Made by a program: the position numbers and the translations under genes
The notes under the pieces: model-generated
Seen by the model: the letters and a program-made list of their open reading frames with translations, nothing else
Told to the model about the DNA's origin: nothing
Database searches by the model: none
In this document: positions 30,741-59,443 of the stretch, one piece after another
Layout: every line of letters begins with the position of its first letter
How positions within the stretch are numbered: position 1 is the first letter of the stretch
Origin: Candidatus Peribacteria bacterium
GTDB lineage: Bacteria; Patescibacteriota; Gracilibacteria; UBA1369; LOWO2-01-FULL-3
Direction of reading: 5' to 3'
NCBI GenBank assembly: GCA_943358175.1
Contig: CALRGV010000003.1
Span: 34,941-98,940 of the forward strand
Length of the DNA: 64,000 nt

Positions 30741-30745
30741 ACACT

Positions 30746-32335: not shown

Positions 32336-33373
32336 ATGGCTAAAGAAAAATTACTTTCTACACAACTGGAACCTGTAGATTGTTTGGCTGAAGTAAGTGC
32401 TGAATTAGTGAGTATTGCCCCTGGAATTGAAGAGGGCGAAATTCGTGATTTAAATTTGTTTTTGACTCCTTCGGCAGAGATTGATGGCATTCAAACTCAA
32501 TTGCAGCAAGGGATTTTGCGACATATGCATCACAGAAGTGTAGAATTACCAGATAGATATAATTCAACAAATGAAGCCGGAGTTTTCAGTTGTAGAAGGC
32601 TGAAGGGAGCTGGTCTTTATAGTGGCCCAAGTGAAGAGTGGTTACACAAAGTAAGGAATGTAAAAAAAGATCAAACCGGATTAGTTCTTGGTTTACAGTC
32701 ATTGCCAGAATTTCAAGGCGCTTTTGATGCTCATACAAGACTTGTTCAAATGGGAATTGAGACTGAATTTCCTCTCGGCGCTCTCAAGCTTGGTGAAATT
32801 ATTTATCAAAATAGAGATGGTGTTTCCAGAGTGGCAATTGGTGAGGCATTTGATGATGCCGGCCTGCCGCCTGAGTATAAAGAAATTCCTTTCGTAATTA
32901 GGGTTGATGCGATTGGTATTAATCATCGTCTTAAGGATTACATTTTTGCAGGGGAACTTCTCTACAACGCTGAACTAGATACCGAGAAAGTGAGAGCTAT
33001 GTTGATGGAAGACGTGACAGCCTACTTACTACAAGAAGCAAAAGTTTTAGGAAATGACTTGCCAGACATTGAGGGAAATTTAGATTTGTACCTAGAATTT
33101 ATTCTAAAGAGAATTTATAAAAACGTTGCATTGCTTCACAAAAATGGGGGAGTGCACGGACAGCTTACTGAACAAAATTTAACAATGGATGGAAAATTTA
33201 TTGATTATGACACTTTGAAGTGGCTTTCGGGAGATATTTTTGAAGAAAAAAGACAGGCAGATCTTGTTAGACTTGAAGTTAGTGCAAGAGCTTTTCTACA
33301 GGTGTGGACAAAGGATCCTGGCAAAGTTGAAAAACTTTTAGAAACTGCTAAAAAAGAATATGGAAAATTTTGA
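32336..33373 (+). CDS. hypothetical protein, possible protein-kinase-like/APH-like fold
   Basis: 345 aa. The C-terminal ALLHKNGGVHGQLTEQNLTMDGKFIDYD resembles the lH..g..HgDl...N......iDfd catalytic segment of Kdo/APH/RIO-type kinases, but has Gln where the catalytic Asp is expected. Confidence 0.3.
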   Translation: MAKEKLLSTQLEPVDCLAEVSAELVSIAPGIEEGEIRDLNLFLTPSAEIDGIQTQLQQGILRHMHHRSVELPDRYNSTNEAGVFSCRRLKGAGLYSGPSEEWLHKVRNVKKDQTGLVLGLQSLPEFQGAFDAHTRLVQMGIETEFPLGALKLGEIIYQNRDGVSRVAIGEAFDDAGLPPEYKEIPFVIRVDAIGINHRLKDYIFAGELLYNAELDTEKVRAMLMEDVTAYLLQEAKVLGNDLPDIEGNLDLYLEFILKRIYKNVALLHKNGGVHGQLTEQNLTMDGKFIDYDTLKWLSGDIFEEKRQADLVRLEVSARAFLQVWTKDPGKVEKLLETAKKEYGKF

Positions 33374-34325
33374 AAGACGTACAAATGATCTCGGAGATAA
33401 TGAGAGGTTGGTGCTATTTCTAGGTACCGAACGAGGCCTTCAAGTAATGCAAAGGATAGTTCAGGACAGAATTGGTGAAGTGGCCGCTGTTTGTGTGCAA
33501 TATGATACTGGGTATGGTGCTCAGGCAAGTGAAGAAATCGCCAGAGTAGCAAAAGAGGCAGGTGCAGATGTCTACTCTTCTAATGATGTGAAATCTACTC
33601 AATATGCTGAATTAATAAGAAGATATGATGCCAATACAGCTCTTTGTATAAATTGGCGAAAGCTTTTTCCTATGGATGCTGTGAATGCTGCACACAGGGG
33701 GCTCACTGTAGCTCATGATAGTTTACTGCCACATTTGAGAGGATTTGCCCCATTAAACCATTCACTAAGATTGGGAGAAAACAAAACCGGGGTAACACTC
33801 TTTTACGCAGCTAAAGAAACGGATTCAGGGGATATTATTGGTGCCAAGGAAACTGCAATTGGCAGTGATGAATATGTGAGAGAGGTGAGAGATAGGGTTA
33901 CTGGATTGACTGTAGAATTAGTTTCGGAAGAATTGCCTAGGATATTGGCCGGTAGATCTGTGGGATCACCACAGGATGAATCAAAAGCAACTTTCGGGGT
34001 GAGACTTACTCCAGATGATGGACGCATTGATTTTTCTAGAACCAGAAGAGAAATATTCAATTTAATTAGGGCCACATCTCATCCATATCCGGGAGCTTTT
34101 ACTGGTTTGGAAGGTAGAGAAATGAGAGTATGGACAGCTTCTTTGCCTGAAGATACTCCAGTGTTAGCAACTACAATTCCAGGAAGAGTAGTGAAAAGAG
34201 AAGAGAACAGGGGTGTTTTTGTTTCTGCCGGTGACGGTGCAATTCTACTGGAAAATGTAGAAATAAATGGAGATAACGCTAGTGCAGATGCCTTTATCAG
34301 AAATCATTCCACAACCCTCAAATAA
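33360..34325 (+). CDS. formyltransferase (Fmt/ArnA-N-terminal type; putative sugar N-formyltransferase)
   Basis: VAHDSLLPHLRGFAPLNHSLRLGENKTGVTLFYAAKETDSGDII (the HxSLLPxxRG...D motif set), plus a C-terminal domain PYPGAFTGLEGREMRVW. The start overlaps the upstream gene by 14 nt. Confidence 0.8.
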   Translation: MENFERRTNDLGDNERLVLFLGTERGLQVMQRIVQDRIGEVAAVCVQYDTGYGAQASEEIARVAKEAGADVYSSNDVKSTQYAELIRRYDANTALCINWRKLFPMDAVNAAHRGLTVAHDSLLPHLRGFAPLNHSLRLGENKTGVTLFYAAKETDSGDIIGAKETAIGSDEYVREVRDRVTGLTVELVSEELPRILAGRSVGSPQDESKATFGVRLTPDDGRIDFSRTRREIFNLIRATSHPYPGAFTGLEGREMRVWTASLPEDTPVLATTIPGRVVKREENRGVFVSAGDGAILLENVEINGDNASADAFIRNHSTTLK

Positions 34326-35351
34326 ATGAAAGAAACACTACTTATTACAGGAGCTGGTGGATATGTGGGAACACATTTAGTTGAGCAAGCTTTAGATAAA
34401 GGTTATCGCGTCAAAGCGCTTGACACCTATGTTTTTGGCAAAGATAAAATGGCTCACGTTGAGGCGAGAGATGATCTAACAATGATTAAGGCTGACATTA
34501 GAGGAGTAGGTAAAGACTTGTTTAAAGATGTAGATTTTGTAGCGGATTTAGCAGGGTTTTCAAATGATCCTTCAGCAGAAATTGATCCAGATCTTACGAG
34601 GTCAGTGAATTTTGGTGGATGTGCAAATGTAGCGAAAATGGCGAAGGGAAGTGGTGTTAAACGTTATGTGGAAATGTCTTCTTGCTCCGTTTATGGAGCC
34701 AATGAAGGTATCTGTGATGAATCTACGAGTCCCAATCCACAATCTTTATATGCACAAATAAAAGCTGAAGTAGAAGAGCACCTTATGGAACTTTCTGATA
34801 ATGATTTTTGCGCTACAGCATTAAGGAATTCTACATGTTTTGGACTGAGTAATCGCATGAGATACGACTTAGTTGTAAATCTTATGTCTTTGAATGCTTT
34901 TGAAGATAGGAGTTTGAAAGTTTTTGGAAGCGGCAACCAGAGAAGACCTCTAATTCACGCAGCAGATTCTGCCGCAATTGTATTACATTTACTTGAGCAA
35001 GATCCTTCATTAGTTCGTGGGGAAATATTTAATATAGGTAGTGAAAATACTAGAGTTATAGATTTAGCGGATAGAATTCGTGGCGTTGTTGGTGATGCCC
35101 TTGGTGAAGAAATAGGAGTTGAACACGTAGGAGAAAACACAGACATTAGAGATTATGAGGTTTCTTTTGCTAAATTTACAAATAGATTTGGAATTGTAAC
35201 AAGTTTATCGGTAGAGGACGGATCACGTGAAATAATTAGAGCCTTGATGGGGGGAAAAGCTTTGCCCAATCTAGACACTATGACTTTGCAATTTTATCAA
35301 TCATTAATGCATAAATATGGAAGTTCCTTTTTATCGACATTCGGTCAATAA
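34326..35351 (+). CDS. NAD-dependent epimerase/dehydratase (extended SDR)
   Basis: LLITGAGGYVGTHL, SSCSVYG and YAQIK (YxxxK). The start immediately follows the formyltransferase stop. Confidence 0.8.
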   Translation: MKETLLITGAGGYVGTHLVEQALDKGYRVKALDTYVFGKDKMAHVEARDDLTMIKADIRGVGKDLFKDVDFVADLAGFSNDPSAEIDPDLTRSVNFGGCANVAKMAKGSGVKRYVEMSSCSVYGANEGICDESTSPNPQSLYAQIKAEVEEHLMELSDNDFCATALRNSTCFGLSNRMRYDLVVNLMSLNAFEDRSLKVFGSGNQRRPLIHAADSAAIVLHLLEQDPSLVRGEIFNIGSENTRVIDLADRIRGVVGDALGEEIGVEHVGENTDIRDYEVSFAKFTNRFGIVTSLSVEDGSREIIRALMGGKALPNLDTMTLQFYQSLMHKYGSSFLSTFGQ

Positions 35352-36453
35352 AGACGATATAGCTCGAGTTGTGTCTACCCTTGAGGGGATGTTTTTGACG
35401 ACCGGAGGAGTTACTACTGAGTTTGAATGTAAATTTGCGGATCTTTTTGAAGTGAATCATTGTATTGGAACTACCAATTGCACAAGTGCCGCTGAATTAG
35501 CTTTAAGAATTTGGGATGTAGGTCCAGGCGATGAAGTTATCGTTCCTACGATGAGTTATGTAGCCACGGCTCAATCAGTGGCGCTACGCGGGGCAAAACC
35601 AGTTTTCGTGGACAGCGATGGGCAAACAGGTTTGATAGACTTAAATCAAATAGAAGCGGCTATTACGGAAAACACGAAAGTCATTATGCCGGTACACTTG
35701 TATGGAGTGATGGTGGATATGGTTGCTCTTAAGGTGATTGCAGATAAACACGGATTAAAAATTTTAGAGGATAGTGCTCACGCTGTAGTCTCATCGAGAG
35801 ATGGAATTAAACCAGGGCAAATGAGTGATGCTGCAGTTTTTAGTTTTTATGCTACTAAAAATATTACCAGTGGAGAAGGAGGAGCTTTAATTTGTAACGA
35901 TGATAAATTTGCTGAGGATTTTCGTCGCGGTACTTGTTGTGGAGTGACAAAAACGGCTCATAGCAGACGTAAAGAGGGAGAGAAAGCCTATGTTGGTTAC
36001 GACAGTGTTCAAGTTGCCGGGAAGTGCAATATGACCAATATTCAAGCAAGTTTGCTCATTGGCCAGATAGATAGACTTCCTATGGACCGAGCAAAAAGAG
36101 GTGAATTAGTTGCACTATATAGAAAACTTTTAGCAGACTTTGGTCCTGTGGAATTGCCTCATGCACCAGATGGTATAGATAGTTCACACTACGTGATGGT
36201 CGCTTTACTCCAAGATGGAACAAGAGATGGTATTTTTAGGACTTTTGGAGAAAAAGGAATTGGTTGCGCTGTTAATTTTGATCCAATCCACTTGAAAACA
36301 ATTTTTAAACAGTTGAGTGGTTATAAAGAAGGTGATTTTCCAGTTGCTGAAAATTGGGGAAGAAGGTGTATTACATTACCTCTCTATAACGGACTAGAAG
36401 AAGAGCAGGTGAGATATGTAACTGATACGATTAAAGCAGCTTATGGAAAATAA
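35317..36453 (+). CDS. DegT/DnrJ/EryC1/StrS-family PLP-dependent sugar aminotransferase (AT1)
   Basis: N-terminal VPFYRHSVNKDDIARV..., EDSAHAV, and FSFYATKNITSGEGGALI (catalytic Lys). It overlaps the SDR gene by 35 nt. Confidence 0.85.
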   Translation: MEVPFYRHSVNKDDIARVVSTLEGMFLTTGGVTTEFECKFADLFEVNHCIGTTNCTSAAELALRIWDVGPGDEVIVPTMSYVATAQSVALRGAKPVFVDSDGQTGLIDLNQIEAAITENTKVIMPVHLYGVMVDMVALKVIADKHGLKILEDSAHAVVSSRDGIKPGQMSDAAVFSFYATKNITSGEGGALICNDDKFAEDFRRGTCCGVTKTAHSRRKEGEKAYVGYDSVQVAGKCNMTNIQASLLIGQIDRLPMDRAKRGELVALYRKLLADFGPVELPHAPDGIDSSHYVMVALLQDGTRDGIFRTFGEKGIGCAVNFDPIHLKTIFKQLSGYKEGDFPVAENWGRRCITLPLYNGLEEEQVRYVTDTIKAAYGK

Positions 36454-37729
36454 ATTACAAATTTTAGGAGCTGCCCAAGCATTTGGATTTGGAGGGATTA
36501 GTGAAATGTGTGCAATTGAGGGAGCCCTTAGAATAGACCCGAGATCTGAAGATTGCACTGTGCACATGATTGAAAATACACAGTTCAAAGCTGTTGTAGC
36601 TGGATCCAGGCAAAGATTTCAATTACATAGTGGTGATATTTTTGATAGTGATCAATTTAAGGATGTTGATGTGGTAGTTCCAAGTTATGATACGGCAGCT
36701 GTATTCTATGGGTGGTTCAATAATTTGCCAGTTTATTTTTACGATGGAATGCTTTGGTTTTGGGATTTTGAAAAATACGAGCAAAAATTAGATGCTGAAA
36801 TTTCAGAGCTTGAATCATTAAAGGCTTCTTCTAACTTGGAAGCTTTGAAACAAAAATATCAAGAATATTTAGGGAATGATTTTCATTTCACTGTTTTAAT
36901 TGCCTATCATTTAGCAAAAAAAATTTATGCGAGAGGGGCTTTAGGCGTAAACGAAAGAGTTTCAGCAATGGGGGAATTAGGTAAAAAAATTCAAGTGATA
37001 GGGGCAATGATAGATCCTTTAGTTGATCCTAACGAGAAAAGCTCTGAAGGTGAACACGTATTGGTGACACTGAGTGGCAGTTTAGCTCCAACATTAAGTT
37101 TCGAGCAGAACATGGTTTTTGCCAGAGGGGCATTGGCCTTTGCTCGTGAGGCTCATGACAAGTTCGAAGTGGATATTCCATTTATTTTTTCTTGTCATCC
37201 AAAAATTTTCGAGCAACTGACGAAGGAAGGATCCTGTGATTCTTTACCTAATAATTTCAAGGTTGTTCCAAGCTTTCCCTATGAAGAAAATTTGAGAATG
37301 ATCAGAGATGCTTATGCTGTTTTTGCTTCACCAGGATTTTCTACTGTTCAAGAGGCTGCTCATTTTAGAACTCCATTATTTTTCTTGCCGGAGCAAAATG
37401 GAGGTCAACCAACAGGCTTTCAGACTTTGAAGAAAGCTGGATATCCAACAGAACATAATCTCACGGTTACTGATAAAATATATGGAGGTGATTGCAACAT
37501 TGGAGATTACGACACTCCGCGATTATACAGAAATGTTGGTGAATTATGGAGTGACGAAATGGCTGAAGTGAGAGAAGGAGTTTTGAGAAGCTTTGTAGAT
37601 GCGTTGAGAGACAAAGATGAAAGGGAAGCGCTTACAAATGGTCAGAGAGAAGCCGTTTCCAGTATGATTGGTGGTTTTGATGGCGCACGGGAAATGGTGA
37701 ATGATTTACTCAGTGATCTACTGAAATGA
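36443..37729 (+). CDS. hypothetical protein, possible GT-B fold (MurG/PseG-like) enzyme
   Basis: 428 aa. The C-terminal AVFASPGFSTVQEAAHFRTPLFFLPEQNGGQP resembles the G..t..E....g.P.i..P....Q motif of GT28/GT1 enzymes. The N-terminal half is not recognised. Confidence 0.35.
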   Translation: MENKLQILGAAQAFGFGGISEMCAIEGALRIDPRSEDCTVHMIENTQFKAVVAGSRQRFQLHSGDIFDSDQFKDVDVVVPSYDTAAVFYGWFNNLPVYFYDGMLWFWDFEKYEQKLDAEISELESLKASSNLEALKQKYQEYLGNDFHFTVLIAYHLAKKIYARGALGVNERVSAMGELGKKIQVIGAMIDPLVDPNEKSSEGEHVLVTLSGSLAPTLSFEQNMVFARGALAFAREAHDKFEVDIPFIFSCHPKIFEQLTKEGSCDSLPNNFKVVPSFPYEENLRMIRDAYAVFASPGFSTVQEAAHFRTPLFFLPEQNGGQPTGFQTLKKAGYPTEHNLTVTDKIYGGDCNIGDYDTPRLYRNVGELWSDEMAEVREGVLRSFVDALRDKDEREALTNGQREAVSSMIGGFDGAREMVNDLLSDLLK

Positions 37730-38700
37730 ATCAAAAAAACTACTTAAATTTTGCTGAAGGAGAGGCTGGTGTCTATCGTGATGGAGAGCTTATTCCATTT
37801 GCGGAAGCACATCTTGGTAGTGGAGAACATACGGATTCTACTTTAATTGTAACTTGTTTTAATCGTGCCCATACTATTAAGCAAGCTATTGAAAGTGCGT
37901 TGAGATGCCAGCAAGAAAAAGGATCCATTGATGTTCTAGCCGTAGACGATGGGTCTACAGATGGAAGTGTCGATATCCTGAGAGGTTTTGCCCAACAAAG
38001 ACTCATTAAATTAGTAGCATTGGCAAATAATTCCGGTTCCGAAGCTTTGCCTAAGAATATTGCAGCCTTCTTAGCAAATTCAGATTATTTATCCTATTTA
38101 GATAGTGATGATCGCATAGGAGAAGTAGATGCTTTTGATACATCTCTAGCTGCACTTAAGGGAAAGGATGAATTTGTAATGAGTGTTTCAAACTTAGTAT
38201 TTGAATTGGGTTGTACTCTCGATGAAGTGGCGGCAAATATGCCATGGTTACTTGATGTTGATAATTATGAACCATCAGCAGTTATTAGAAATACTGTAGC
38301 CAAGCAATACAAAATGAGAGTTGCGAAAGAACATTCAGTATTTGAACTCTTGAACCATGGCTACTACGATGCTTTTAAACTAATGAGAAGAAGTGCATTT
38401 TTAAAGAGTGGAGGAGTAGTAGAAGATATGGGTTCATGTGGAGATTTTGGTACTTATCTGCGACTAAATCGTTTTGGTAGGTGTTTAGCCATTCCTAGGG
38501 ATTTTTATGTCTATGTGATTAATGGCGAGAATGATAGCTTTTATTCCGATGGCAAAAGACAGTGGCTAGAAGCTCAACACCGATCTTTTTCCTTAGGCGA
38601 AATTCGTCACAGGGGAATTAAATATGATGAATTACAATCTCATTGCGAACCGGAGTTTTTTACCAGGTACAAATTTACTCGCGCAGAAGTTGAAGAATAA
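37726..38700 (+). CDS. family 2 glycosyltransferase
   Basis: LIVTCFNRAHTIKQAIESAL...VLAVDDGSTDGS...SYLDSDD. ATGA overlap with the upstream gene. Confidence 0.8.
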   Translation: MNQKNYLNFAEGEAGVYRDGELIPFAEAHLGSGEHTDSTLIVTCFNRAHTIKQAIESALRCQQEKGSIDVLAVDDGSTDGSVDILRGFAQQRLIKLVALANNSGSEALPKNIAAFLANSDYLSYLDSDDRIGEVDAFDTSLAALKGKDEFVMSVSNLVFELGCTLDEVAANMPWLLDVDNYEPSAVIRNTVAKQYKMRVAKEHSVFELLNHGYYDAFKLMRRSAFLKSGGVVEDMGSCGDFGTYLRLNRFGRCLAIPRDFYVYVINGENDSFYSDGKRQWLEAQHRSFSLGEIRHRGIKYDELQSHCEPEFFTRYKFTRAEVEE

Positions 38701-39427
38701 ATTGATGATCTCTTGGATCATATAAAGTTTCACCTCCATTCGCTATTTGGGCCATTTCAGCAAGTTGTGATTGTGATTGAAAGTGATAGTGTTCGAAAAC
38801 TTTTGGATCAAAATATTGTAAGTCTATTTGCTGACTTGCGTATGCTGCCATCGCTTCCGCTTTTCTGGAATCTGGAGGCACAGCCATTGATTGCCATGAT
38901 TTATGTCGGGCTATTCTCTCATTATGAGTAATTTCCTCCCCCTTTTTTGAATAGAGTGGTGTCTCACAAACTGTGATGTTATTTTGAGTTTCACTAAGTA
39001 TTTTCCAGATTGCTGCCACAACGAGATCGTGATCCAAATGACCACCTTCATAAGAATGAGTGATGATGAGATCAGGATCTAATTCTTTAATTATTCCCCT
39101 TACTCCACTGAGAAGTTGAGTAATTTGTAGATGAAGGCGGGAATCTGTTAGCCCTGCAAAATGTAATGGTCGGCTAATGCCTGAAATATCTGCAACCTTT
39201 TTTGCCTCTGCCCGTCTAAAGGCAATATATTCCGGGCCATATAGATGCGGGGTATTTGGATAGTAGTATTCAGGAGAATCTTCCTCCAGAGGCGCTCCAT
39301 CAGTGACAAACGCTAAGGATAGGAGCTGAGAACATTCGCGCATAGCATGAGTAGCTCCGATAACCTCATCATCGGGATGTGCATATATTGCCAGTGGGCT
39401 TTTTGATTTAAAAAACATAAGGAACAA
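38675..39427 (-). CDS. PIG-L/LmbE-family N-deacetylase
   Basis: LAIYAHPDDEVIG and HSYEGGHLDHD zinc-ligand motifs. It is the only minus-strand gene in the island and overlaps the GT2 3' end by 26 nt. Confidence 0.8.
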   Translation of the reverse strand: MFLMFFKSKSPLAIYAHPDDEVIGATHAMRECSQLLSLAFVTDGAPLEEDSPEYYYPNTPHLYGPEYIAFRRAEAKKVADISGISRPLHFAGLTDSRLHLQITQLLSGVRGIIKELDPDLIITHSYEGGHLDHDLVVAAIWKILSETQNNITVCETPLYSKKGEEITHNERIARHKSWQSMAVPPDSRKAEAMAAYASQQIDLQYFDPKVFEHYHFQSQSQLAEMAQIANGGETLYDPRDHQFILQLLRE

Positions 39428-39474
39428 AGGTACGTTTTTTGGCTTTAACTTGTCAAGTGGTATATATTTTAGAC

Positions 39475-40197
39475 ATGAATGATGAATACTCGATTTTATT
39501 CGACAAATATTTGAAACTCAGTGACGAGAAGAAAGCTTTAAACGACTGTGTTTTTAAGGCTATAGAAGATTCGTTTGGGAGAAAGTCCTTAGATATTTTA
39601 GATGTAGGATGTGGCGAGGGGAAATTGAGTAGTTCCTTAGCAAAAGAAGGCCACAAAGTTTCCGCTATAGACGTGAGAGACTCATTTATTGAAGCTAATG
39701 TAAACTTTGAGAGTATTGGTTTTTTTGAGTATTCAACGGAGAAAAAGTTTGATCTGATCATTATGGCTTACTTTTTGTGGGAACTTCCTTTGTATAAATG
39801 GGATGATGTTTTTTTGAAATGCAGTCAAATGATTAAGGGAGGAGGGAAAATTTTTGTGGTGGATGTCTGTAATGAAGGGAAATTTGATAATATTTTTTTT
39901 GAATTCAATCTTATTCAAGATAGGGAATCTCAGGATCTTCAAGATTACTGGGAGAGATATTGTGAGAAAAAATGCGCGAGAGAAAAGAAAATCAATTTTA
40001 ATTCTTCACTTACCGCAGCTAATCCTTCCGACATATATGAAGCCATCGCTTTCTTCTTTAAAGAGCCATTATTAAAAGATATTTATATTAAGAATAAACA
40101 AGAGTTTATTGATTTTTTTGAGAGGAAAAAAAAGAAAAATGGGAAAATAATCCTAACCAGTAAACATGCTCTTGACGTAATTGGGAATACCTTGTAG
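39475..40197 (+). CDS. class I SAM-dependent methyltransferase
   Basis: ILDVGCGEGKLSSSLAKEGHKVSAIDV (motif I) and FDLIIMAYFLWE. I prefer the ATG at 39475 to the listed TTG at 39439. Confidence 0.7.
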   Translation: MNDEYSILFDKYLKLSDEKKALNDCVFKAIEDSFGRKSLDILDVGCGEGKLSSSLAKEGHKVSAIDVRDSFIEANVNFESIGFFEYSTEKKFDLIIMAYFLWELPLYKWDDVFLKCSQMIKGGGKIFVVDVCNEGKFDNIFFEFNLIQDRESQDLQDYWERYCEKKCAREKKINFNSSLTAANPSDIYEAIAFFFKEPLLKDIYIKNKQEFIDFFERKKKKNGKIILTSKHALDVIGNTL

Positions 40198-40223
40198 GGT
40201 TACATCTTTTCTTAATCGGTTAT

Positions 40224-41126
40224 ATGGAAGACCCACAAGGCATAGAAACTAGTTTCCAAATAGTAAATAGAGTAGCTGCTCAGGATGGAAGCATTTCTAA
40301 ATATATTCTTGAGACACCTGGACAAAAAGGGACCTTTGAATTGGGGACATTTACATCAGAGGGCACTTTTGATATTTGTGTTTCAACTATGGCTGGCTGT
40401 CCTTTACAGTGTCAGTTCTGTGCCATTCCGTATAGTGAAATACCATATGAAAGAAAACTCTCAGCTGGAGAGTTACATGAACAGGTATCTCTTGCCTTTC
40501 AGAACAGAGGAGAAATCGAAAATGTAGTGGTTGGATTTATGGGTAACGGAGAACCATTCCTCAATTTTGACGCTGTAGTTGATGCTTCATCTAGAATATT
40601 GAATGATCCAAGTCTTTCAATTAGTTCATTGAATATATCCACTACCGGAGTAAGACCTGAAAGAATTTCTGAGCTTGCAAATACTGATTTTGGGAGATCT
40701 GGAAGAGGGAAGATTCAGTTCAGTTTGCTTTCTCTTGATCCAGCAATACGTAATAAATTTATTCCTAAGGTTAAATCTCTGGAAGAGTGCCTACCTCACT
40801 TAGATTATTTTGCAGCCACCACTGGACAACCCGTGAAGTACAACGTGATGTTAGTTGATGGACTTAATGATTCTATTGAACACGCAAAGGAGTTAGCAAA
40901 ATTTATTCAGGCAGCACCACATTTAAGACGAATAAAGGTTTCTACATTTAATCCCTTCCCCGGGATTGAGATGAAGCCAGCAACCGCAGAAAAATTTGAA
41001 TCTTTCATCGCTCATTTGGAGTCACAGGGAGTAGATGTGAAAGTATTTAAAGGAGATGCAGACGAAAAAGTTTTGGCAAGTTGTGGGCAAATGAGAGCAA
41101 GAGTTGGCAGAATCTTAACTCAATAA
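40224..41126 (+). CDS. RlmN/Cfr-type radical SAM methyl synthase homolog lacking the N-terminal accessory domain
   Basis: DICVSTMAGCPLQCQFC (extra Cys, six residues, then CxxxCxxC), GFMGNGEPFLN, NISTTGV, FSLLSLDPAIRNKFIP, STFNPFPG and LASCGQM align block by block with RlmN. Only about 57 aa precede the first Cys. Confidence 0.8.
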   Translation: MEDPQGIETSFQIVNRVAAQDGSISKYILETPGQKGTFELGTFTSEGTFDICVSTMAGCPLQCQFCAIPYSEIPYERKLSAGELHEQVSLAFQNRGEIENVVVGFMGNGEPFLNFDAVVDASSRILNDPSLSISSLNISTTGVRPERISELANTDFGRSGRGKIQFSLLSLDPAIRNKFIPKVKSLEECLPHLDYFAATTGQPVKYNVMLVDGLNDSIEHAKELAKFIQAAPHLRRIKVSTFNPFPGIEMKPATAEKFESFIAHLESQGVDVKVFKGDADEKVLASCGQMRARVGRILTQ

Positions 41127-41725
41127 TGATGTTAAACCGAATAGTTCTTGCATCAAGTAATCCTGAAAAGCAAAGAGTTGCCAATGAAGTTTGGAGGCCT
41201 GACATGCAGGTTTTATCCCCGCGTGATTTTGGTTATCAATTACCAGATGACATAGAAGGCGAAGATGATTATTCAACAAACGCACGAATCAAAGCTGATT
41301 GGGTAGGTGGTCGCGTTAAATTGCCTGTGATAGCTGATGATAGTGGTATGGAGATTAAAGGATTGGAAGGAAAGCCTGGTGTTAGCACTCGCAGATGGGC
41401 TGATGGATCAAATGACGAAAGACTTATCACGAGGACTGTAGAAGAAATAAGTAGGCTTTCCGAAAGTGAACGTGCTTGTACTTTTAGAATTTGCGCTATC
41501 TATAGAGATGTTAATGGAAAGACTACAGAAGTTGTGGAACAAGATAATGGAGTGCTCTTGCTTGAACCTCAAGGAGATATTTTGCCAGGCCACCCTTTGG
41601 CCTCACTTCTATATCTACCAGAATATGGTGCTACTTTAGCTGAACTAAGAAATAACCCAGATTTTGTAGCCAAAGATGTACGCGCTCACAAGCGGTTAAA
41701 AGAATTATTGTTAAAATCAATTTAA
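41126..41725 (+). CDS. HAM1/RdgB-family non-canonical NTP pyrophosphatase
   Basis: IVLASSNPEKQRV and PVIADDSGMEIKGLEGKPGVSTRRWA. The start overlaps the upstream stop (TAATG at 41124-41128). Confidence 0.75.
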   Translation: MMLNRIVLASSNPEKQRVANEVWRPDMQVLSPRDFGYQLPDDIEGEDDYSTNARIKADWVGGRVKLPVIADDSGMEIKGLEGKPGVSTRRWADGSNDERLITRTVEEISRLSESERACTFRICAIYRDVNGKTTEVVEQDNGVLLLEPQGDILPGHPLASLLYLPEYGATLAELRNNPDFVAKDVRAHKRLKELLLKSI

Positions 41726-41726
41726 T

Positions 41727-42884
41727 ATGGAAGATTTAAAAGTGCCAGAAAGGGTAATACCTGCCGCTCAAATACATTTTCCGGAAGAAGATATTGTCGC
41801 CATGCAAAGTGAGTTTGCTGATATTTTGAGGACAGGACAGCTTGTCTTAGGAGAAAGAACCAAAATTTTCGAGAGAGAATTTGCTGACTATTTAGGTGCA
41901 GATAAAGCTCTAGCGGTAAATAGCGGCACTTCTGCTTTAGAAATTGCTATGAGGTGTATTGGAGTTGAAGGGAAAAATGTAATCGTCCCTGCAAATACTT
42001 TTTATGCTACTGCCGGTGCCGTATTACATGCCGGTGGAAATTTGAAATTTGGAGATATCGAAAGTGAAACTTTTGGATTAGACAGTGAGAATGCATCTAG
42101 ATTAATTGATGAAAATACTGCTGCAATAGTGGTAGTACATATTGGAGGAACTCCCTCTCGCGACTTGATGAAATTAAGACAGCTTTGTGACGAGAGAGGA
42201 ATTAAATTAATTGAAGATAGCGCTCATGCTCATGGCTCTTCAGTGAATGGTCAAAAAGTTGGAACCATTGGAGATGTAGGAACCTTTTCATTTTTCCCTA
42301 CAAAAGTAGTGACTAGTGGAGAAGGTGGAATGGTAGTTGCTAAAGATCCACGCGTAATTGAAGAAGGACGTATTTATAGAGACCAAGGAAAAGCATCCGG
42401 AGGAAGAAATTTCCATACGCATCAAGGCTATGCCTGGAGAATGAGTGAAATTCATGCCTTGCTTGGTATTTCACAATTAAGGAGATTAGATGAATTTATC
42501 GATCATAGAAAAATGATTGCTCGCATTTATGACGATGGTTTAAATGGATTGCCGGATTTAAGTCCAGCGGTAATTCCTGCCGGTTCAGAAAGTAATTATT
42601 ATAAGTATGTTGTAAATTTGAGGCCTTCAATTAATAGAGAATTATTAAAAGCAAAGATGAAAGAATTAGGAGTTTCGCTAAGTGGTGAAGTTTATGCCGA
42701 TGGACTACATTCTCAACCTGTTTTTCAGAATAAATTTGAGGGAGGAGAAAATGGATTTCCTAACGCGGATCATTTTTGTGCAAATCATATTTGCTTACCT
42801 GTCTCTGCAGTCGTGAGTGAAGAAGATGCTAAATACGTAATTGAAAAATTATATGAATTTTGTGGATATTCCAAAACAAGATGA
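41727..42884 (+). CDS. DegT/DnrJ/EryC1/StrS-family aminotransferase (AT2)
   Basis: LGERTKIFEREFADYLG, NSGTSALEIA, EDSAHAHG, and FSFFPTKVVTSGEGGMVV (catalytic Lys). Confidence 0.85.
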   Translation: MEDLKVPERVIPAAQIHFPEEDIVAMQSEFADILRTGQLVLGERTKIFEREFADYLGADKALAVNSGTSALEIAMRCIGVEGKNVIVPANTFYATAGAVLHAGGNLKFGDIESETFGLDSENASRLIDENTAAIVVVHIGGTPSRDLMKLRQLCDERGIKLIEDSAHAHGSSVNGQKVGTIGDVGTFSFFPTKVVTSGEGGMVVAKDPRVIEEGRIYRDQGKASGGRNFHTHQGYAWRMSEIHALLGISQLRRLDEFIDHRKMIARIYDDGLNGLPDLSPAVIPAGSESNYYKYVVNLRPSINRELLKAKMKELGVSLSGEVYADGLHSQPVFQNKFEGGENGFPNADHFCANHICLPVSAVVSEEDAKYVIEKLYEFCGYSKTR

Positions 42885-43950
42885 ATCACTTCAGGCTGAA
42901 ATTTTAACTGCAATAGCTGATATTATTCGTCGTGGAGATTTTATTTTGGGACGAGAAGTCGGTGAATTGGAAGAAATGCTCAAAGACTATTTAGGGGTTA
43001 AGAATGCCATTCTAGTTTCTTCAGGAACGGATGCAATGGCCTTAGCGCTGAGAGCTCTCGATTTACCTAAAGGCAGCTCTGTAATAACTACTCCATTTAC
43101 ATTTTTTGCCACTAGCGAAGTGATTTTAAACGAGGGGCTCATACCTAAATATGTTGATATAGATCCATCTACTTATAATATTTCACCAGAAGCTATTGCT
43201 GCTGCGATTGATTATAATACTTCTGCTATTATGCCAGTTCATATTTTTGGAGGGCCATGTGATATAGAAGGAATCATGAGGGTTGCAAACAAGCAGGGAC
43301 TCCCTGTAATTGAGGATTGCGCTCAAGCTTTTGGAGCAAGCGTAGGCGGAAAAATGGTGGGAAGTTTTGGTCAGTTCGGATGCTATTCATTTTATCCTAC
43401 AAAAAATTTAGGAGCATATGGTGATGCTGGTTTAATGGTTACTGATGATGACGCTATGGCCGTAAAAATTAGAATATTGAGAAATCAGGGCTCTGCTGCT
43501 CCATACAGACATGATTTTGCAGGATTTAACTCTAGGTGCGATACGGTTCAGGCGGCTATTTTAAAAGCAAAACTGCCACATGTTAACGCATTGAATGATA
43601 GACGTAGAGAAATTGCAGCACGTTATAGAGAAGGTCTCCGGAAAGTTAAAGGATTAATTTTGCCAGAAGAATCTGCAGGCACTAATCATGTATATCACCA
43701 ATTTACTATTCAAGTAGAAGCGCGAGACGATTTGAGAAAAGCTCTAAGCGAGCAAGGAATTCCCACCGCCGTTTATTATGATATGGGTTTAAATGAACAA
43801 GAGGCTTTAAGTGGTATTGAGTCATCCGTTTATTTGCCACAGACAAAAGAAGTTTGTTCACGTGTCTTATCCTTGCCAATTCATCCAGGCTTAACTGAAG
43901 AAGATGTAGCTAGAGTAATTACCAATGTAAATAAATTATTAGATGTCTGA
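42853..43950 (+). CDS. DegT/DnrJ/EryC1/StrS-family aminotransferase (AT3)
   Basis: MNFVDIPKQDESLQAEIL..., EDCAQAFGA, and YSFYPTKNLGAYGDAGLMVT (catalytic Lys, WecE-like context). I prefer the ATG at 42853 to the listed TTG at 42841. Confidence 0.85.
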   Translation: MNFVDIPKQDESLQAEILTAIADIIRRGDFILGREVGELEEMLKDYLGVKNAILVSSGTDAMALALRALDLPKGSSVITTPFTFFATSEVILNEGLIPKYVDIDPSTYNISPEAIAAAIDYNTSAIMPVHIFGGPCDIEGIMRVANKQGLPVIEDCAQAFGASVGGKMVGSFGQFGCYSFYPTKNLGAYGDAGLMVTDDDAMAVKIRILRNQGSAAPYRHDFAGFNSRCDTVQAAILKAKLPHVNALNDRRREIAARYREGLRKVKGLILPEESAGTNHVYHQFTIQVEARDDLRKALSEQGIPTAVYYDMGLNEQEALSGIESSVYLPQTKEVCSRVLSLPIHPGLTEEDVARVITNVNKLLDV

Positions 43951-44986
43951 ATTTTGCGTAGAAAAACTAGGTCTATTCCCGCAGAAATTAGCAGCGGTTC
44001 GTGAAGCCCGGAATGGTATTGTTGACACTAGTTATCCAGTGAGCGTGGAGCTTTCTTTGACCGACAAGTGTAACTTTGAATGTGATTGGTGTTCTGATCT
44101 CATGCTTCGTGCAAAGCAAAATGGTCACATGCAAGAAAGAGTAGTTTATAGCTTACTCGATGACCTTGCTGAAGGTGGTACAAAAGGTGTGGTTATTGAA
44201 GGTGGTGGTGAACCAACTTTACATAAAAGTTTTGCAAACATTACAAGAAGAATTGGTGAAACCGGAATGGCCGCAGGCTTGATTACTAATGGAAGTAAAT
44301 TTGATTATGAAGACGTTTTTGGCGTTTTTGAATGGGTGAGAGTGAGCTTAGATGTTTCTTCTCCTGCTCAAATGAACGAGTTGAAATCTAGACAAAAAGC
44401 CATGTTCGATAGAGTGATAGCAAATATTGAAAGGATGGCTAGATTAAAAACTCACACCGTCTTGGGAGTTTCGTACATTATCACCAGAAAAACTAGAGAG
44501 GGAATTGCTGAAATGGTCCAACAATTAAGAGATATGGGAGTAGATTATGTGCAAATTAAACCGGTAGTTGGGCAGCCTCAACTTTCTCTAGATAATTATT
44601 CTGAATTTGAAGATTTGCGGAAATATACAAGAGATGGATTTAAAGTTTTTGTTGATGCATTGAAAGAGAATACTACGAGGGGAAATGCCGGGCTACCTTG
44701 TACAGCTCACAGCTTATCATCAATTGTTGGAGCAAATGGTTCTGTCTATTTATGTGGAAGACTTAATTCTTATCCAGACTGGCCGGCAATTGGTAATATA
44801 AACGACGCTTCATTTAATGAAATTTGGAATAGCTCTGAAAGATTCAGGCAAGCAAATTTAACTTTAGATAAAGATTTTTGTGCTGCAAAATGTCCAGAAT
44901 GTAGATTAACTAAATTCAATGTAGCGCTCGATAAGGGAGAGGATCTTACTCCACCTGATGATGTTAAAACCCCTAATTTTATTTAA
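43943..44986 (+). CDS. radical SAM enzyme with Cys-rich C-terminal (SPASM/twitch-like) extension
   Basis: LSLTDKCNFECDWCSD (CxxxCxxC) and VIEGGGEPTL. The C-terminal Cys cluster is CTAHS...YLCGRL...CAAKCPEC. It overlaps AT3 by 8 nt. Confidence 0.75.
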   Translation: MSEFCVEKLGLFPQKLAAVREARNGIVDTSYPVSVELSLTDKCNFECDWCSDLMLRAKQNGHMQERVVYSLLDDLAEGGTKGVVIEGGGEPTLHKSFANITRRIGETGMAAGLITNGSKFDYEDVFGVFEWVRVSLDVSSPAQMNELKSRQKAMFDRVIANIERMARLKTHTVLGVSYIITRKTREGIAEMVQQLRDMGVDYVQIKPVVGQPQLSLDNYSEFEDLRKYTRDGFKVFVDALKENTTRGNAGLPCTAHSLSSIVGANGSVYLCGRLNSYPDWPAIGNINDASFNEIWNSSERFRQANLTLDKDFCAAKCPECRLTKFNVALDKGEDLTPPDDVKTPNFI

Positions 44987-46071
44987 TGAGCGAAGAACCC
45001 TTAAGAGAAGTAAGAAATCAAAATTTGGCTCTAGCATATGCCCCAGTTGTTAAAAACAATATGGAGGAAGAAGGTGATGATTTTGGAATTCCACTTATAG
45101 ATTTATATGTTAACGATGCGTGCAATTTACGATGCAATTTTTGTATGACAGCTTTTGGGCCCACTGTTTTGCCTGTAAGTGCTGTGCCGGTAATTGCTCA
45201 GCTTAAACCACGAGTTATAACTATTACCGGTGGTGGAGAGCCTTCAATTTATAGAGACGGTGAAAATAGAATTGATGATTTCGTAGCCGCTATTCGTAGA
45301 GAAATGGGACCTATACCAATCGGAATGATGTCCAATGGGGTGAAAGCTTTGCCAGAAGGCGTATTGAGCGAATTAGATTGGTTGAGAGTTTCTTTAAATG
45401 CTCCAAATCGTGGACTTTATAATCAAGTTCATAACAGAGATAAATTTGAGGATGTGATGAAAAATATAACGGATTATCTGAATGGGCCTTTGGAAAAATT
45501 AGGCATTGGTTTTGTTTTCAACGAATTGACTGCTCACGCTCTAATTGATTTCGCTCGTACTATATTTGATGGAATTAAACCTCAAACAGATGCAGATAAA
45601 TTTTCAGGACTTACTTTGCAGTTTAGGCCTGAAGCCAATGAGGACTATAGTAGGTTTTTGATAAATATTGGTCTGAGACAAAAATTGATTGTAGAAATCG
45701 GAGTCTTAAATGGAGAGTTTAGAGATTTTCTTCTTAAGCAAACAAATATTATGCAAGTCTTGGATAATGAATGCTTTCTGCTTCATGCTGCTTTTAGGAA
45801 TTGCTTCATATCCTTTTTACAGATGAATATTGATGCGAGAGGAGATGCTTATCCTTGTCCTCAAAAGGCGCATGAAAAAAAAGATAGCTATGGAAATATC
45901 TTCGATGATGGATTTGTCTCAGGCGTCAGAGATAGAGTGAGGCAGTCTTTTGGATGCCATAATTCAGATAGTTGTGGCGGATGTGCCCAATCAAGAGTCA
46001 ACTCCATTTATGAAGGCGTGGACTTTTCTAAACTCTCCTTTGACGGCAAGGTTAAGCCAGTTTTCTTTTAG
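44986..46071 (+). CDS. radical SAM enzyme, second copy, with Cys-rich C-terminal extension
   Basis: YVNDACNLRCNFCMT (CxxxCxxC) and ITITGGGEPS. C-terminal Cys residues are AYPCPQKA...CHNSDSCGGCAQS. TAATG overlap with the upstream gene. Confidence 0.7.
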   Translation: MSEEPLREVRNQNLALAYAPVVKNNMEEEGDDFGIPLIDLYVNDACNLRCNFCMTAFGPTVLPVSAVPVIAQLKPRVITITGGGEPSIYRDGENRIDDFVAAIRREMGPIPIGMMSNGVKALPEGVLSELDWLRVSLNAPNRGLYNQVHNRDKFEDVMKNITDYLNGPLEKLGIGFVFNELTAHALIDFARTIFDGIKPQTDADKFSGLTLQFRPEANEDYSRFLINIGLRQKLIVEIGVLNGEFRDFLLKQTNIMQVLDNECFLLHAAFRNCFISFLQMNIDARGDAYPCPQKAHEKKDSYGNIFDDGFVSGVRDRVRQSFGCHNSDSCGGCAQSRVNSIYEGVDFSKLSFDGKVKPVFF

Positions 46072-46223: not shown

Positions 46224-46251
46224 TTGACAACAGCGAGAATTTAGCTAATAT
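46224..46251 (+). promoter_or_regulatory. candidate promoter for the L33-like gene
   Basis: TTGACA (46224-46229), 16-nt spacer, TAATAT (46246-46251), 40 nt upstream of the ATG at 46292. Confidence 0.4.
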
Positions 46252-46501: not shown

Positions 46502-46569
46502 TGCCGGTTTTGTTGCGGCGACTGTAGCTTTTTGTTAAAGTCTCTTTGTTAATTTTTTCACAAACTTAT

Positions 46570-58012: not shown

Positions 58013-58020
58013 AATATTTG

Positions 58021-59442: not shown

Positions 59443-59443
59443 G

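Follow-up and report, generated by a model that had tools for sequence, protein, structure and literature searches.

Desosamine formation in Streptomyces venezuelae involves DesI, a 4-aminotransferase, DesII, a deaminase/dehydrogenase of the radical S-adenosylmethionine (SAM) type (rSAM), DesV, a 3-aminotransferase, and DesVI, an N-methyltransferase. In blasticidin S biosynthesis, the rSAM enzyme BlsE acts on cytosylglucuronic acid (CGA) and is paired with BlsH, a pyridoxal phosphate (PLP) enzyme of the DegT family. An rSAM enzyme encoded beside a DegT protein, as in DesI/DesII/DesV, BlsE/BlsH and BtrN/BtrS, makes a keto-sugar for the PLP enzyme or processes its amino product. Two further kinds of system are relevant: ArnA/ArnB, for the formation and N-formylation of UDP-4-amino-4-deoxy-L-arabinose (UDP-L-Ara4N), and the pairs MshA/MshB, BshA/BshB and BtrM/BtrD, in which the transfer of N-acetylglucosamine (GlcNAc) is followed by deacetylation by a PIG-L protein. 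Here, a 64,000-nucleotide stretch of contig CALRGV010000003.1 of a Candidatus Peribacteria bacterium (positions 34,941 to 98,940; hereafter "the window") was analysed, and I describe a cassette of 14 open reading frames (ORFs) at positions 32336-46071 of the window (about 13.7 kb) whose products resemble members of these systems.

With only a little more confidence than doubt, I favour the reading that this is one conserved cassette, confined to the Candidate Phyla Radiation (CPR), whose enzymes would work in the cytoplasm and turn a nucleotide-linked sugar into one that carries several amino groups, is N-acylated and methylated, and is then transferred. The substrate sugar is probably derived from GlcNAc. 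The type of chemistry, which is the tailoring of sugar nucleotides by rSAM, PLP and short-chain dehydrogenase/reductase (SDR) enzymes, is known. Judged by the curated families and by the literature that could be searched, several features are new: the combination of genes, its confinement to the CPR, the family of the rSAM enzyme called rSAM1 below, and the members resembling RlmN, HAM1 and SelO. No description of the cassette or of the rSAM1 family was found in the searchable literature, which leaves subscription journals outside its coverage. The CPR (Patescibacteria) have minimal genomes and are attached to host cells, and their surface and secreted chemistry is almost unknown. Spending 14 genes and 13.7 kb of a minimal genome on one cassette signals its importance for this host-attached lifestyle.

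A fourteen-gene cassette that recurs in other CPR genomes

All 14 ORFs of the original prediction were reproduced at the same coordinates in the ORF list, and the same genes were called independently on three public copies of this DNA (European Nucleotide Archive ERZ27280196 contig k141_1492385, 174.7 kb; Logan ERR4405442; NCBI GCA_964684425.1). They form two plus-strand blocks (block 1, 32336-38700; block 2, 39439-46071) with one antisense gene between them, as listed here with the main basis of each assignment in brackets.

32336-33373, plus strand: unk345, kinase-fold protein of 345 residues, nearest SelO/YdiU; candidate phospho- or nucleotidyl-transferase (fold)
33360-34325, plus strand: FT, ArnA-N/Fmt-like N-acyl (formyl) transferase; it has a C-terminal domain, and its active site is atypical (Pfam)
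34326-35351, plus strand: extended SDR of the nucleotide-sugar C4 oxidoreductase/epimerase type (Pfam, PDB)
35317-36453, plus strand: AT1, DegT aminotransferase (Pfam)
36443-37729, plus strand: GTB428, GT-B-like protein of 428 residues; glycosyltransferase (GT) or 2-epimerase/hydrolase type (sub-threshold matches)
37726-38700, plus strand: GT2, soluble glycosyltransferase of family 2 (Pfam, motifs)
38675-39427, minus strand: PIG-L/LmbE-family N-deacetylase; the gene callers start it at 39418 (Pfam, motifs)
39439-40197, plus strand: MT, class-I SAM methyltransferase; alternative start 39457 (Pfam)
40224-41126, plus strand: RlmN/Cfr-type class-A radical-SAM methylase without the N-terminal RNA-binding domain (NCBIfam, PDB)
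41126-41725, plus strand: divergent HAM1/RdgB-like nucleoside-triphosphate pyrophosphatase; longest ORF from 41081 (Pfam)
41727-42884, plus strand: AT2, DegT aminotransferase (Pfam)
42853-43950, plus strand: AT3, DegT aminotransferase of the sugar C3-aminotransferase type; longest ORF from 42841 (Pfam, PDB)
43943-44986, plus strand: rSAM1, radical-SAM/SPASM-twitch enzyme predicted to act on sugars (Pfam, model)
44986-46071, plus strand: rSAM2, second radical-SAM enzyme with a partial SPASM/twitch C-terminus (Pfam)

The tight start/stop packing claimed for the locus was borne out. The plus-strand junction gaps are -14, 0, -35, -11 and -4 nt in block 1 and 26, -1, 1, -32, -8 and -1 nt in block 2; the gap is at most 1 nt at 10 of the 11 same-strand junctions, the exception being that of 26 nt. 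The antisense PIG-L gene shares 26 nt with the 3′ end of the GT2 gene, and between it and the start of the MT gene there are 20-38 nt, depending on the choice of start codons. Directly on the 5′ side of the cassette, at 30587-32071, are a tRNA-Thr gene and a divergently oriented PIF1-family helicase gene. The 3′ boundary is clear; a promoter-like site (46224-46251, TTGACA-16-TAATAT) precedes a 69-residue Cys-rich ORF (46292-46501), which is followed by a terminator-like hairpin (46512-46528). The counts of the promoter and terminator scan did not rise above the shuffled expectation, and the scan is useful for this 3′ boundary only. The GC content of the cassette (0.375-0.396 versus 0.37-0.44 elsewhere in the window) gives no distinct signature.

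Gene families were assigned with Pfam, with the curated equivalog cutoffs of NCBIfam and with sequence searches of the PDB; AlphaFold2 (AF2) models were compared by Foldseek, and a hydropathy scan was run on all 14 proteins. Pfam agreed with the earlier family calls for FT, SDR, the three DegT proteins, GT2, PIG-L, MT, Ham1 and the three Radical_SAM proteins, while three calls need refining. Radical_SAM is indeed matched by three proteins (one with a clear SPASM match and one with a sub-threshold SPASM match of 19 bits), but one of the three is an N-terminally truncated RlmN/Cfr-type methylase. As for the two proposed glycosyltransferases, GT2 was confirmed, while the second is only weakly GT-B-like, from sub-threshold matches. 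The first gene, to which no family had been given, encodes a kinase-fold protein closest to SelO/YdiU. No curated NCBIfam cutoff, those for the Arn, pseudaminic acid (Pse), legionaminic acid (Leg), Des, enterobacterial common antigen, RlmN and RdgB proteins among them, was reached by any of the 14 proteins, which agrees with the earlier statement that the cluster maps onto no nameable pathway. A sugar nucleotidyltransferase, NeuB and a 2-deoxy-scyllo-inosose (DOI) synthase, which had been reported as missing, were found neither among the 14 genes nor among the other window ORFs scanned, where the sole nucleotidyltransferase is NadD-like and lies beside NadE. Since the hydropathy scan showed no membrane-protein pattern in the 14 proteins (there are isolated hydrophobic stretches in AT1 and rSAM2 only), the pathway is taken to be cytoplasmic.

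Is this arrangement found in other genomes? The proposed check of gene-neighbourhood conservation revealed the cassette, again as a unit, in six or more further CPR lineages, with 27-83% identity and with different flanking genes. The versions found are as follows (amino acid identity to the window proteins, then gene content).

L087 (SRR22387799): 45-75%; gene order of the window; the locus ends within AT3
L090 (JGI contig): 74-83%; unk345 to GT2, then the contig ends
L086 and L092 (ERZ27293351 and JGI): 38-63%; gene order of the window plus a second SDR
L006, L008 and L093 (Patescibacteria metagenome-assembled genome (MAG) GCA_018816805.1 and JGI): 33-59%; no RlmN-like or HAM1-like gene; an extra second SDR and a B12-binding rSAM
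L012 and L088 (Candidatus Peribacteria): 27-46%; rearranged and partly inverted; no FT, SDR, AT1 or MT; an extra GNAT protein and PP-loop ATPase

The rearranged Peribacteria version (L012/L088) keeps unk345, the GT-B-like protein, GT2, PIG-L, the RlmN-like and HAM1-like proteins, AT2, AT3, rSAM1 and rSAM2. The second SDR of L006 and L086 is of the Polysacc_synt_2 type. The cassette is flanked by the PIF1 and tRNA genes in the window, by UvrA in L086, by an ABC transporter and EamA in L087, and by pyruvate kinase and an integrase in L006. Because the flanks differ in every genome, there is a hint that the cassette moves as a unit, and the recurrence of the gene set in other genomes with different flanks makes it more than a chance assembly. 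Thus, this is a rare arrangement, both conserved and modular, and the coherent unit that had been proposed is real. Neither did every gene prove to be an ortholog within one known surface-glycan pathway, nor was the arrangement unconserved with its genes scattered elsewhere. A PIF1 helicase gene and an MmeI-type restriction-modification gene were also seen upstream of the cassette in L087 (2344-3900), and the integrase downstream of it in L006 (16723-17532) is a tyrosine integrase.

Predicted sugar-tailoring enzymes of the cassette

The aminotransferases and radical-SAM enzymes at the end of block 2 form the proposed core. All three DegT proteins of the cassette retain the PLP lysine. AT2 (DegT, 341 bits; PLP lysine in SFFPTKVVTSGEGG) has TlmJ as its nearest PDB chain. 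AT3 (DegT, 380 bits; PLP lysine in SFYPTKNLGAYGDA) matches 7b0d with 334 bits, WbpE with 265, QdtB with 252 and DesV (2oga) with 244, and matches ArnB-type enzymes and perosamine synthases with about 160-177 bits; by these sequence scores AT3 is clearly predicted to be of the sugar C3-aminotransferase kind. rSAM1 has Radical_SAM and SPASM domains in Pfam, and its best PDB sequence match is BlsE (E 4e-6, 18% identity), while BtrN gives no match at the sequence level. The AF2 model of rSAM1 has a predicted local distance difference test score (pLDDT) of 95. In Foldseek, BlsE gave the best mutual template-modelling score (TM, 0.67/0.71) and DesII a TM of 0.61-0.67 (E about 1e-12, 17-19% identity); SkfB, SuiB, PqqE and anSME are likewise among the high-ranking matches, with a weaker one to BtrN (TMq 0.41). 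The invariant cysteines of rSAM1 are residues 43, 47 and 50 and residues 253, 271, 313, 317 and 320; the latter five would fit one auxiliary cluster of the twitch/partial-SPASM type. rSAM2 (Radical_SAM 33 bits, SPASM sub-threshold as given above) is 23% identical to rSAM1, with a CX3CX2C motif at Cys46/50/53 and further cysteines at 273...291 and 324/330/333 in the C-terminus. Its orthologs directly follow rSAM1 wherever that region is covered (L006 and L012/L088).

The rSAM1 family extends far beyond the CPR. In total, 507 homologs were found at E <= 1e-10, and a scan of 185,579 species genomes gave 78 rSAM1 loci in many bacterial phyla, in Woesearchaeota and, more distantly, in Methanomassiliicoccales. 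The listed non-CPR homologs are mostly about 570 residues long with an N-terminal cytidylyltransferase domain (PF02348/PF12804), a fusion carried by hundreds of homologs with 42-49% identity. A DegT gene adjoins the rSAM1 homolog in about 30 loci, which are most of the non-CPR loci with flanking sequence apart from a termite-gut group, and among the three aminotransferases of the cassette it is AT2 that best matches this neighbour. PIG-L (often), a second rSAM/SPASM protein, NeuA/KdsB-like cytidylyltransferases, WbqC and B12-dependent rSAM proteins recur nearby. In Desulfovibrio-type loci, the rSAM1-DegT pair occurs together with NeuB/PseI-like, PseG-like and KdsB-like genes, all of which score below the curated NCBIfam cutoffs. 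Because of the cytidylyltransferase fusions and these Pse-like NeuB clusters, the wider family points to nucleotide-linked sugars rather than to an aminoglycoside or aminocyclitol, as judged from gene content. The rSAM1 family is probably an anaerobic, NAD-independent route to amino- or deoxy-sugars. It is large and spans phyla, no characterised member was found in the searches, and the cassette gives a handle on it.

Some of these loci deserve a description of their own. L004 (10001-20831, Pseudodesulfovibrio sp. CP182342.1) and about 30 others (L009-L051) represent a phylum-spanning cluster around the cytidylyltransferase-rSAM/SPASM fusion, with DegT, PIG-L, a KdsB-like cytidylyltransferase, WbqC, a carbamoyltransferase, NeuB/PseI-like and PseG-like proteins, a second rSAM/SPASM protein and a methyltransferase. 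This cluster itself appears to be uncharacterised, and all of its members score below the NCBIfam cutoffs. In L009 (2260-4122), L010 and L011, a truncated alanyl-tRNA-synthetase-like protein (about 620 residues, by eye) is encoded directly upstream of an rSAM1-DegT-PIG-L triad, behind which come ORFs resembling TIM-barrel, SDR and APH-kinase proteins by eye; one of these loci belongs to a Patescibacteria single-cell genome. In the termite-gut "Deltaproteobacteria" loci, the rSAM1 relatives lie beside genes that look like housekeeping or flagellar ones by eye, for example methionine-aminopeptidase-like and FliI-like genes.

How does the core compare with the described modules? Like the desosamine module, the cassette has two DegT sub-types, an rSAM enzyme and a small SAM methyltransferase in one block; AT2 has the K..TSGEGG and AT3 the KNLG..GD signature, in structure, rSAM1 has DesII as one of its best neighbours, and DesV is a strong sequence neighbour of AT3, both being likenesses and not orthologies. 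In contrast, rSAM1 has a twitch/SPASM-type set of C-terminal cysteines, a second rSAM is present, the cassette has no NDP-hexose synthase and no evident 4,6-dehydratase, and the CPR host has no macrolide genes. With BlsE/BlsH it shares the rSAM-DegT pairing, seen there on a nucleoside- or nucleotide-linked hexose, and BlsE leads both the PDB sequence matches and the mutual TM values of rSAM1. However, CGA synthase, CMP hydrolase, arginine aminomutase and peptide ligase are all absent from the cassette, and the identity to BlsE is low. The Pse-like fusions of Desulfovibrio, Nitrospirota, Planctomycetota and others have the same rSAM family (40-49% identity) followed by an AT2-like DegT, often with PIG-L and a second rSAM/SPASM protein. 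Their NeuB/PseI-like, PseG-like, KdsB-like, WbqC and carbamoyltransferase genes are missing from the cassette, which has instead unk345, FT, SDR, AT1, the GT-B-like protein, GT2 and the RlmN-like and HAM1-like proteins.

These comparisons bear on the possibility that the cassette makes a diffusible specialised metabolite, of a pseudo-oligosaccharide/aminoglycoside-like or hexopyranosyl-nucleoside-like kind. The RlmN/Cfr-like protein would then confer self-resistance by methylating the ribosome, and the HAM1-like protein would clear a toxic nucleotide analogue or provide a nucleotide precursor. All the enzymes are soluble, with no flippase, polymerase or lipid-carrier step, the flanks are variable as in an island, an rRNA-methylase-type gene lies within the cluster and is conserved with it, and the rSAM-DegT and GT-PIG-L pairs follow the logic of butirosin/neomycin and of blasticidin, with BlsE the best neighbour of rSAM1. 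On the other hand, a cyclitol synthase, a nucleobase-releasing enzyme, an exporter and a regulator are lacking in the cassette. The RlmN-like protein does not have the N-terminal domain of canonical RlmN/Cfr, which argues against recognition of the ribosome; L006/L093 lack the putative resistance gene yet keep the rest, and the wider rSAM1 family occurs in Pse-like surface-sugar clusters. A metabolite of this kind is thus unlikely in my view. The aminoglycoside or aminocyclitol product of the original prediction was not established; the enzyme logic (rSAM with DegT, GT with PIG-L) is all that is shared, and there is no cyclitol synthase. As regards a 2-deoxystreptamine aminoglycoside pathway of the butirosin/neomycin type, neither the 14 proteins nor those flanking ORFs that were scanned include a DOI synthase resembling dehydroquinate synthase, while BtrN does appear as a structural match of rSAM1, weaker than BlsE or DesII.

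In block 1, FT, SDR and AT1 form a second arm that recalls ArnA/ArnB. FT has Formyl_trans_N and Formyl_trans_C domains; its best NCBIfam model is PRK06988 (165 bits, cutoff 316), followed here by ArnA PRK08125 (151 bits, cutoff 777), and ArnA is its top PDB match. The NLHGSLLP segment of ArnA aligns with VAHDSLLP of FT. Of the ArnA triad, whose residues I take to be N102/H104/D140, the His and the downstream Asp are kept in FT and Asn102 is replaced by Val, as also in three orthologs. The SDR (Pfam Epimerase family, 127 bits, below every equivalog cutoff) has its GxxGxxG and YxxxK motifs intact (TGAGGYVG, SSCSVYG and YAQIK segments). Its nearest PDB entries are a putative sugar-nucleotide epimerase/dehydratase (6vo6), UDP-GlcA 4-epimerases and UDP-GlcA decarboxylases. 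The SSCSVYG segment lacks the acidic residue that presumably marks decarboxylases, and also the Asp-Glu pair that I take, as a motif rule, to mark 4,6-dehydratases. AT1 (DegT, 349 bits; PLP lysine in SFYATKNIT) has QdtB, an ArnB-like protein and a perosamine synthase as its nearest PDB chains. The scores of AT1, AT2 and AT3 are 285, 250 and 209 bits with the PseC model (cutoff 423.5), 187, 208 and 191 with LegC (cutoff 420), 227, 149 and 202 with ArnB PRK11658 (cutoff 631), and 180, 161 and 184 with the DesI model TIGR04427 (cutoff 650).

The remaining block 1 genes and their neighbours encode transfer, deacetylation and methylation enzymes. GTB428 has sub-threshold matches only (Epimerase_2, E 1e-4, and Glyco_trans_1_3), and a profile of five orthologs gave weak matches to UDP-GlcNAc 2-epimerases and GT1 enzymes in the PDB over the nucleotide-binding region 236-319; it is kept in all cassette versions. 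GT2 (Glycos_transf_2, 57 bits) has the motifs DDGSTDGS and LDSDD; it has no transmembrane segment, unlike the GT2 enzymes acting on polyprenyl phosphate, and no ArnC-type match. The PIG-L protein (71 bits), also encoded in all versions, has intact metal motifs (AHPDDE and HLDHD), and its sole NCBIfam matches are BshB1 and BshB2 (21-28 bits, cutoffs about 190). MT matches Methyltransf_23, 25 and 11 with motif I as LDVGCGEG; it was found in the window, L006, L086 and L087 and not in the Peribacteria version, where both cassette flanks are covered. The soluble pairing of a GT-B-like protein with PIG-L resembles MshA/MshB, BshA/BshB and BtrM/BtrD, but a Cys ligase, an inositol-phosphate synthase and a DOI synthase are missing and the GT-B assignment is weak.

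Could the cassette simply be a diverged version of a known pathway? The order formyltransferase-SDR-DegT, with a GT2 two genes downstream, is reminiscent of ArnA/B/C in UDP-L-Ara4N synthesis, and PseC is the best NCBIfam match of all three aminotransferases, as expected for a pseudaminic or legionaminic acid pathway. Peptide maturation is a frequent role of SPASM enzymes, SkfB and SuiB rank high for rSAM1, and the Cys-rich ORF follows rSAM2, as might be the case for a peptide made by the ribosome and modified after translation (RiPP) with two SPASM enzymes. However, this explanation is largely refuted by the tests of pathway membership and is highly improbable; all the scores fall far under the curated cutoffs (151 versus 777 bits for ArnA and 227 versus 631 for ArnB). 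In contrast to ArnA/ArnB, the FT lacks the triad Asn, the SDR has no decarboxylase-type motif and GT2 is soluble; a membrane-bound ArnC, the ArnD deformylase, the GT-C enzyme ArnT and the ArnE/F flippase have no counterpart among the 14 proteins. For the Pse and Leg pathways, NeuB, PseG and a cytidylyltransferase (CTP_transf_3) were found neither in the cassette nor among the remaining window ORFs that were scanned, and the rSAM1 family is fused to cytidylyltransferases and paired with DegT, not with peptides. The RiPP idea was rejected on its own grounds as well; the sole small ORF is the one after rSAM2, which has no counterpart beside any other cassette version, has its own promoter-like and terminator-like sites and is weakly L33-like (21 bits, cutoff 25).

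Taking the favoured reading of one cytoplasmic sugar-tailoring cassette, I infer the substrates, the order of the steps and the product from the gene content, the motifs, the conservation as a unit and the nearest families and folds. In the core of AT2, AT3, rSAM1 and rSAM2, the rSAM enzymes would oxidise, dehydrate or deaminate secondary sugar carbons without NAD to give keto-sugars. AT3 would aminate C3 and AT2 a second position of a nucleotide-linked hexose, following the logic of DesI/DesII/DesV and BlsE/BlsH. In the second arm, the SDR would form a 4-keto sugar, AT1 would aminate it, and the ArnA-N-like enzyme would N-acylate the amine (a 4-amino or similar group). The GT-B-like protein and the soluble GT2 may transfer sugars in the cytoplasm, after which PIG-L would strip the N-acetyl group from a GlcNAc-type residue in the manner of MshB, BshB and BtrD, and the class-I methyltransferase may methylate N or O. 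For unk345 and the RlmN-like and HAM1-like proteins, the best guess is the activation, exchange or modification of the nucleotide carrier; as a speculation, the SelO-like unk345 might stand in for the missing nucleotidyltransferase.

Several points weigh against this reading. Every step rests on family resemblance, and since no protein attains a curated equivalog cutoff, the regiochemistry is uncertain. The cassette genes include no nucleotidyltransferase, no SDR of evident 4,6-dehydratase type and no export or lipid-carrier step. As the conserved triad Asn is missing, FT may not use formyl-tetrahydrofolate or may be inactive. SkfB and SuiB score as well as DesII for rSAM1, and the SPASM/twitch enzymes include peptide maturases. 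For unk345, the N-terminal half is modelled with low confidence, and Foldseek gave modest E-values. Finally, not all 14 genes are obligatory, because the RlmN-like and HAM1-like genes are missing from L006/L093, and FT, SDR, AT1 and MT from the Peribacteria version.

Three proteins with nucleotide-related folds

Three cassette members have the folds of nucleotide-handling proteins. The RlmN-like protein matches TIGR00048 with 135 bits (cutoff 290), and since this match begins at model position 69, its N-terminal domain is missing. Its best PDB match is RlmN (6fz6, E 1.5e-21). Cys52, the CX3CX2C cysteines (Cys59/63/66) and Cys287 in the C-terminal SCGQ segment align with the RlmN cysteines and are conserved in 20 of 20 relatives. 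It has 23 homologs; those close to it (35-92% identity) have 293-322 residues and no PF21016, and several of them are listed with the same longest-contig size as cassette proteins. Relatives of canonical length are 27-36% identical, one of them, from the CPR, lying in an ordinary housekeeping neighbourhood; PF21016 was seen only in relatives of 27-30% identity. Thus, the protein resembles the class-A RNA methylases RlmN and Cfr in the CX3CX2C motif, in both mechanistic cysteines and in its best PDB matches, but differs from them in lacking PF21016, in its low model score, in belonging to a small cassette clade and in an extra conserved Cys189. This Cys189 is common to the closest set (the window protein and eight others, 47-92% identical); more distant relatives, to which the Peribacteria cassette copy and the proteins of canonical length belong, have A, I, V or L at this position.

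The HAM1-like protein (Ham1p_like, 74 bits; best NCBIfam model 83 bits, cutoff 234) keeps the NPEK, ADDSGMEI and PGVSTRRWA segments. Its GHPLASLLY aligns with GFGYDPIFY of PDB 3tqu, and this version of the segment is kept in four cassette orthologs. Both genes are present in every lineage examined of the window, L086, L087 and L012 groups, and both adjoin AT2 even in the rearranged Peribacteria version. As far as sequences can tell, the two proteins are short, divergent clades that occur with the cassette and are accessory members of it, not accidental neighbours. Since the sole cassette version without the RlmN-like gene, the L006 type, carries a B12-dependent rSAM, the latter could be a non-orthologous replacement for a C-methylation step.

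The opposite view is that there is no single system, only an ordinary surface-glycan cluster interrupted by housekeeping rlmN and rdgB genes and preceded by an unrelated first gene, the apparent unity being gene order inherited in compact genomes. RlmN and RdgB are housekeeping families of wide distribution, the RlmN catalytic cysteines are all in place, the L006/L093 version does without both genes, and compact CPR genomes routinely overlap unrelated genes. However, the set stays together while the flanks change in every genome, and the two genes still lie beside AT2 where the cassette is rearranged and inverted. Both proteins score far below their models (135 versus 290 and 83 versus 234 bits), the RNA-binding domain of the one and the loop at the GFGYDPIF position of the other have been lost or altered, and it is a canonical-length RlmN relative that sits in the CPR housekeeping context. 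I regard such a composite locus as quite unlikely.

The first gene, unk345, had no Pfam match even at E=5. The structural comparison that had been proposed was carried through in part; besides the BlsE/DesII neighbours of rSAM1 given above, it placed unk345 nearest to the fold of YdiU/SelO (E 2.5e-4, TM 0.40), then Bud32, PRPK and Abl. The AF2 model of unk345 has a pLDDT of 64 overall and above 80 in the C-terminal half. The motif HG(Q/R)LTxxNxTxDGKFIDYDT is conserved in the unk345 family and is similar to what I take to be the catalytic-loop motif of SelO, HG-x-[LM]-x-x-x-N ... IDY[DG]. SelO/YdiU, which are AMPylating/UMPylating pseudokinases, are the best fold matches; in contrast, there is no Pfam or sequence-level match to them, unk345 is about 130 residues shorter, and the TM is low and was obtained on a model with a poorly predicted N-lobe. 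Only 10 homologs were found in a word-indexed set of 5.8 billion proteins, with five further loci in JGI metagenomes, and unk345 is always inside the cassette wherever flanking sequence exists. A profile search gave 190 representatives at E < 1e-3, and no Pfam family is assigned to any of them. Thus, unk345 is a member of a kinase-like superfamily without a Pfam model. Across 22 members of this superfamily, 14 columns are invariant, including H65, R67, K90, G91, G93, R198, H268, H274, N281, D285 and D290.

Together these three proteins raise the question of nucleotide or nucleic-acid modification, in which the cassette would make, for example, a glycosylated or aminated hypermodified base or an unusual nucleotide cofactor, the RlmN-, HAM1- and SelO-like proteins being central and the sugar enzymes decorating the base. 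Three cassette proteins do have nucleotide-handling folds, the change in the GFGYDPIF segment fits a non-standard nucleotide, and BlsE, the best neighbour of rSAM1, acts on a nucleoside-sugar. I nevertheless find this account very unlikely; the cassette has no DNA- or RNA-binding domains, glycosylases, transglycosylases or polymerase-linked genes, most of its genes are typical nucleotide-sugar tailoring enzymes, and the trio is dispensable in L006/L093, where the RlmN-like and HAM1-like proteins are missing.

A bolder and rather improbable reading is that the three proteins act on a small-molecule purine nucleotide or nucleoside-sugar and not on RNA, the product in these ultra-small bacteria being a C-methylated, poly-aminated nucleoside-glycoside or an unusual nucleotide-sugar. 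If this is true, it would provide the first non-RNA substrate of a class-A radical-SAM methylase, and an activation of nucleotide-sugars that bypasses the canonical nucleotidyltransferases. An RlmN-type clade without the RNA-binding domain in sugar metabolism would, if acting on small molecules, extend class-A methylation beyond RNA. The formyltransferase-like enzyme with the Asn-to-Val change and the SelO-like protein of a kinase-fold family absent from Pfam are further targets for enzymology.

Host genome and other genes of the window

The best inference is that the host is a cellular CPR genome. The nearest named relatives of the cassette proteins are from Patescibacteria and Peribacteria MAGs, and elsewhere in the window there are genes for topoisomerase I, SmpB, NadD/NadE, phosphoglucomutase, the complete SUF system (as an operon) and an SLH-domain protein, along with many ORFs that have no Pfam match. 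It looks like a reduced Patescibacteria genome, in line with the earlier impression of a reduced genome in which so large an investment would be unexpected. Across the window (1-64000), the GC skew is strongly positive, at +0.11 to +0.34 in each 2-kb bin, whatever the gene strand; such values are unusually high for a bacterial chromosome arm.

An FTR1 iron permease gene and the SUF operon (Rrf2, SufC, SufB, SufD, SufS, NifU-like and FeS_assembly_P) are located at 51763-60722, 6-15 kb downstream of the three Fe-S-dependent radical-SAM genes, and are probably housekeeping genes. Large ORFs (612-991 residues) without a Pfam or NCBIfam match were found at 2856-4748, 10366-13341, 46546-48384 and 52525-54393. 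The 612-residue protein, whose gene comes just downstream of the cassette, shows a single hydrophobic segment at the N-terminus, and its conservation is limited to the same-species copies.

Glycan-related genes exist outside the cassette as well. They encode a YfhO/GT-C-like membrane protein (41-1885), an SDR with strong GDP_Man_Dehyd and Epimerase matches (1842-2840), the phosphoglucomutase (14607-16073), a second GT2 (19734-20438) and a GT4 (20435-21439), and they could supply precursors or membrane steps. At 60886-63447, an 853-residue protein combines SLH domains with a beta-propeller domain (571 bits). It implies an envelope of the S-layer/secondary-cell-wall-polymer type, which is a possible destination for unusual sugars.

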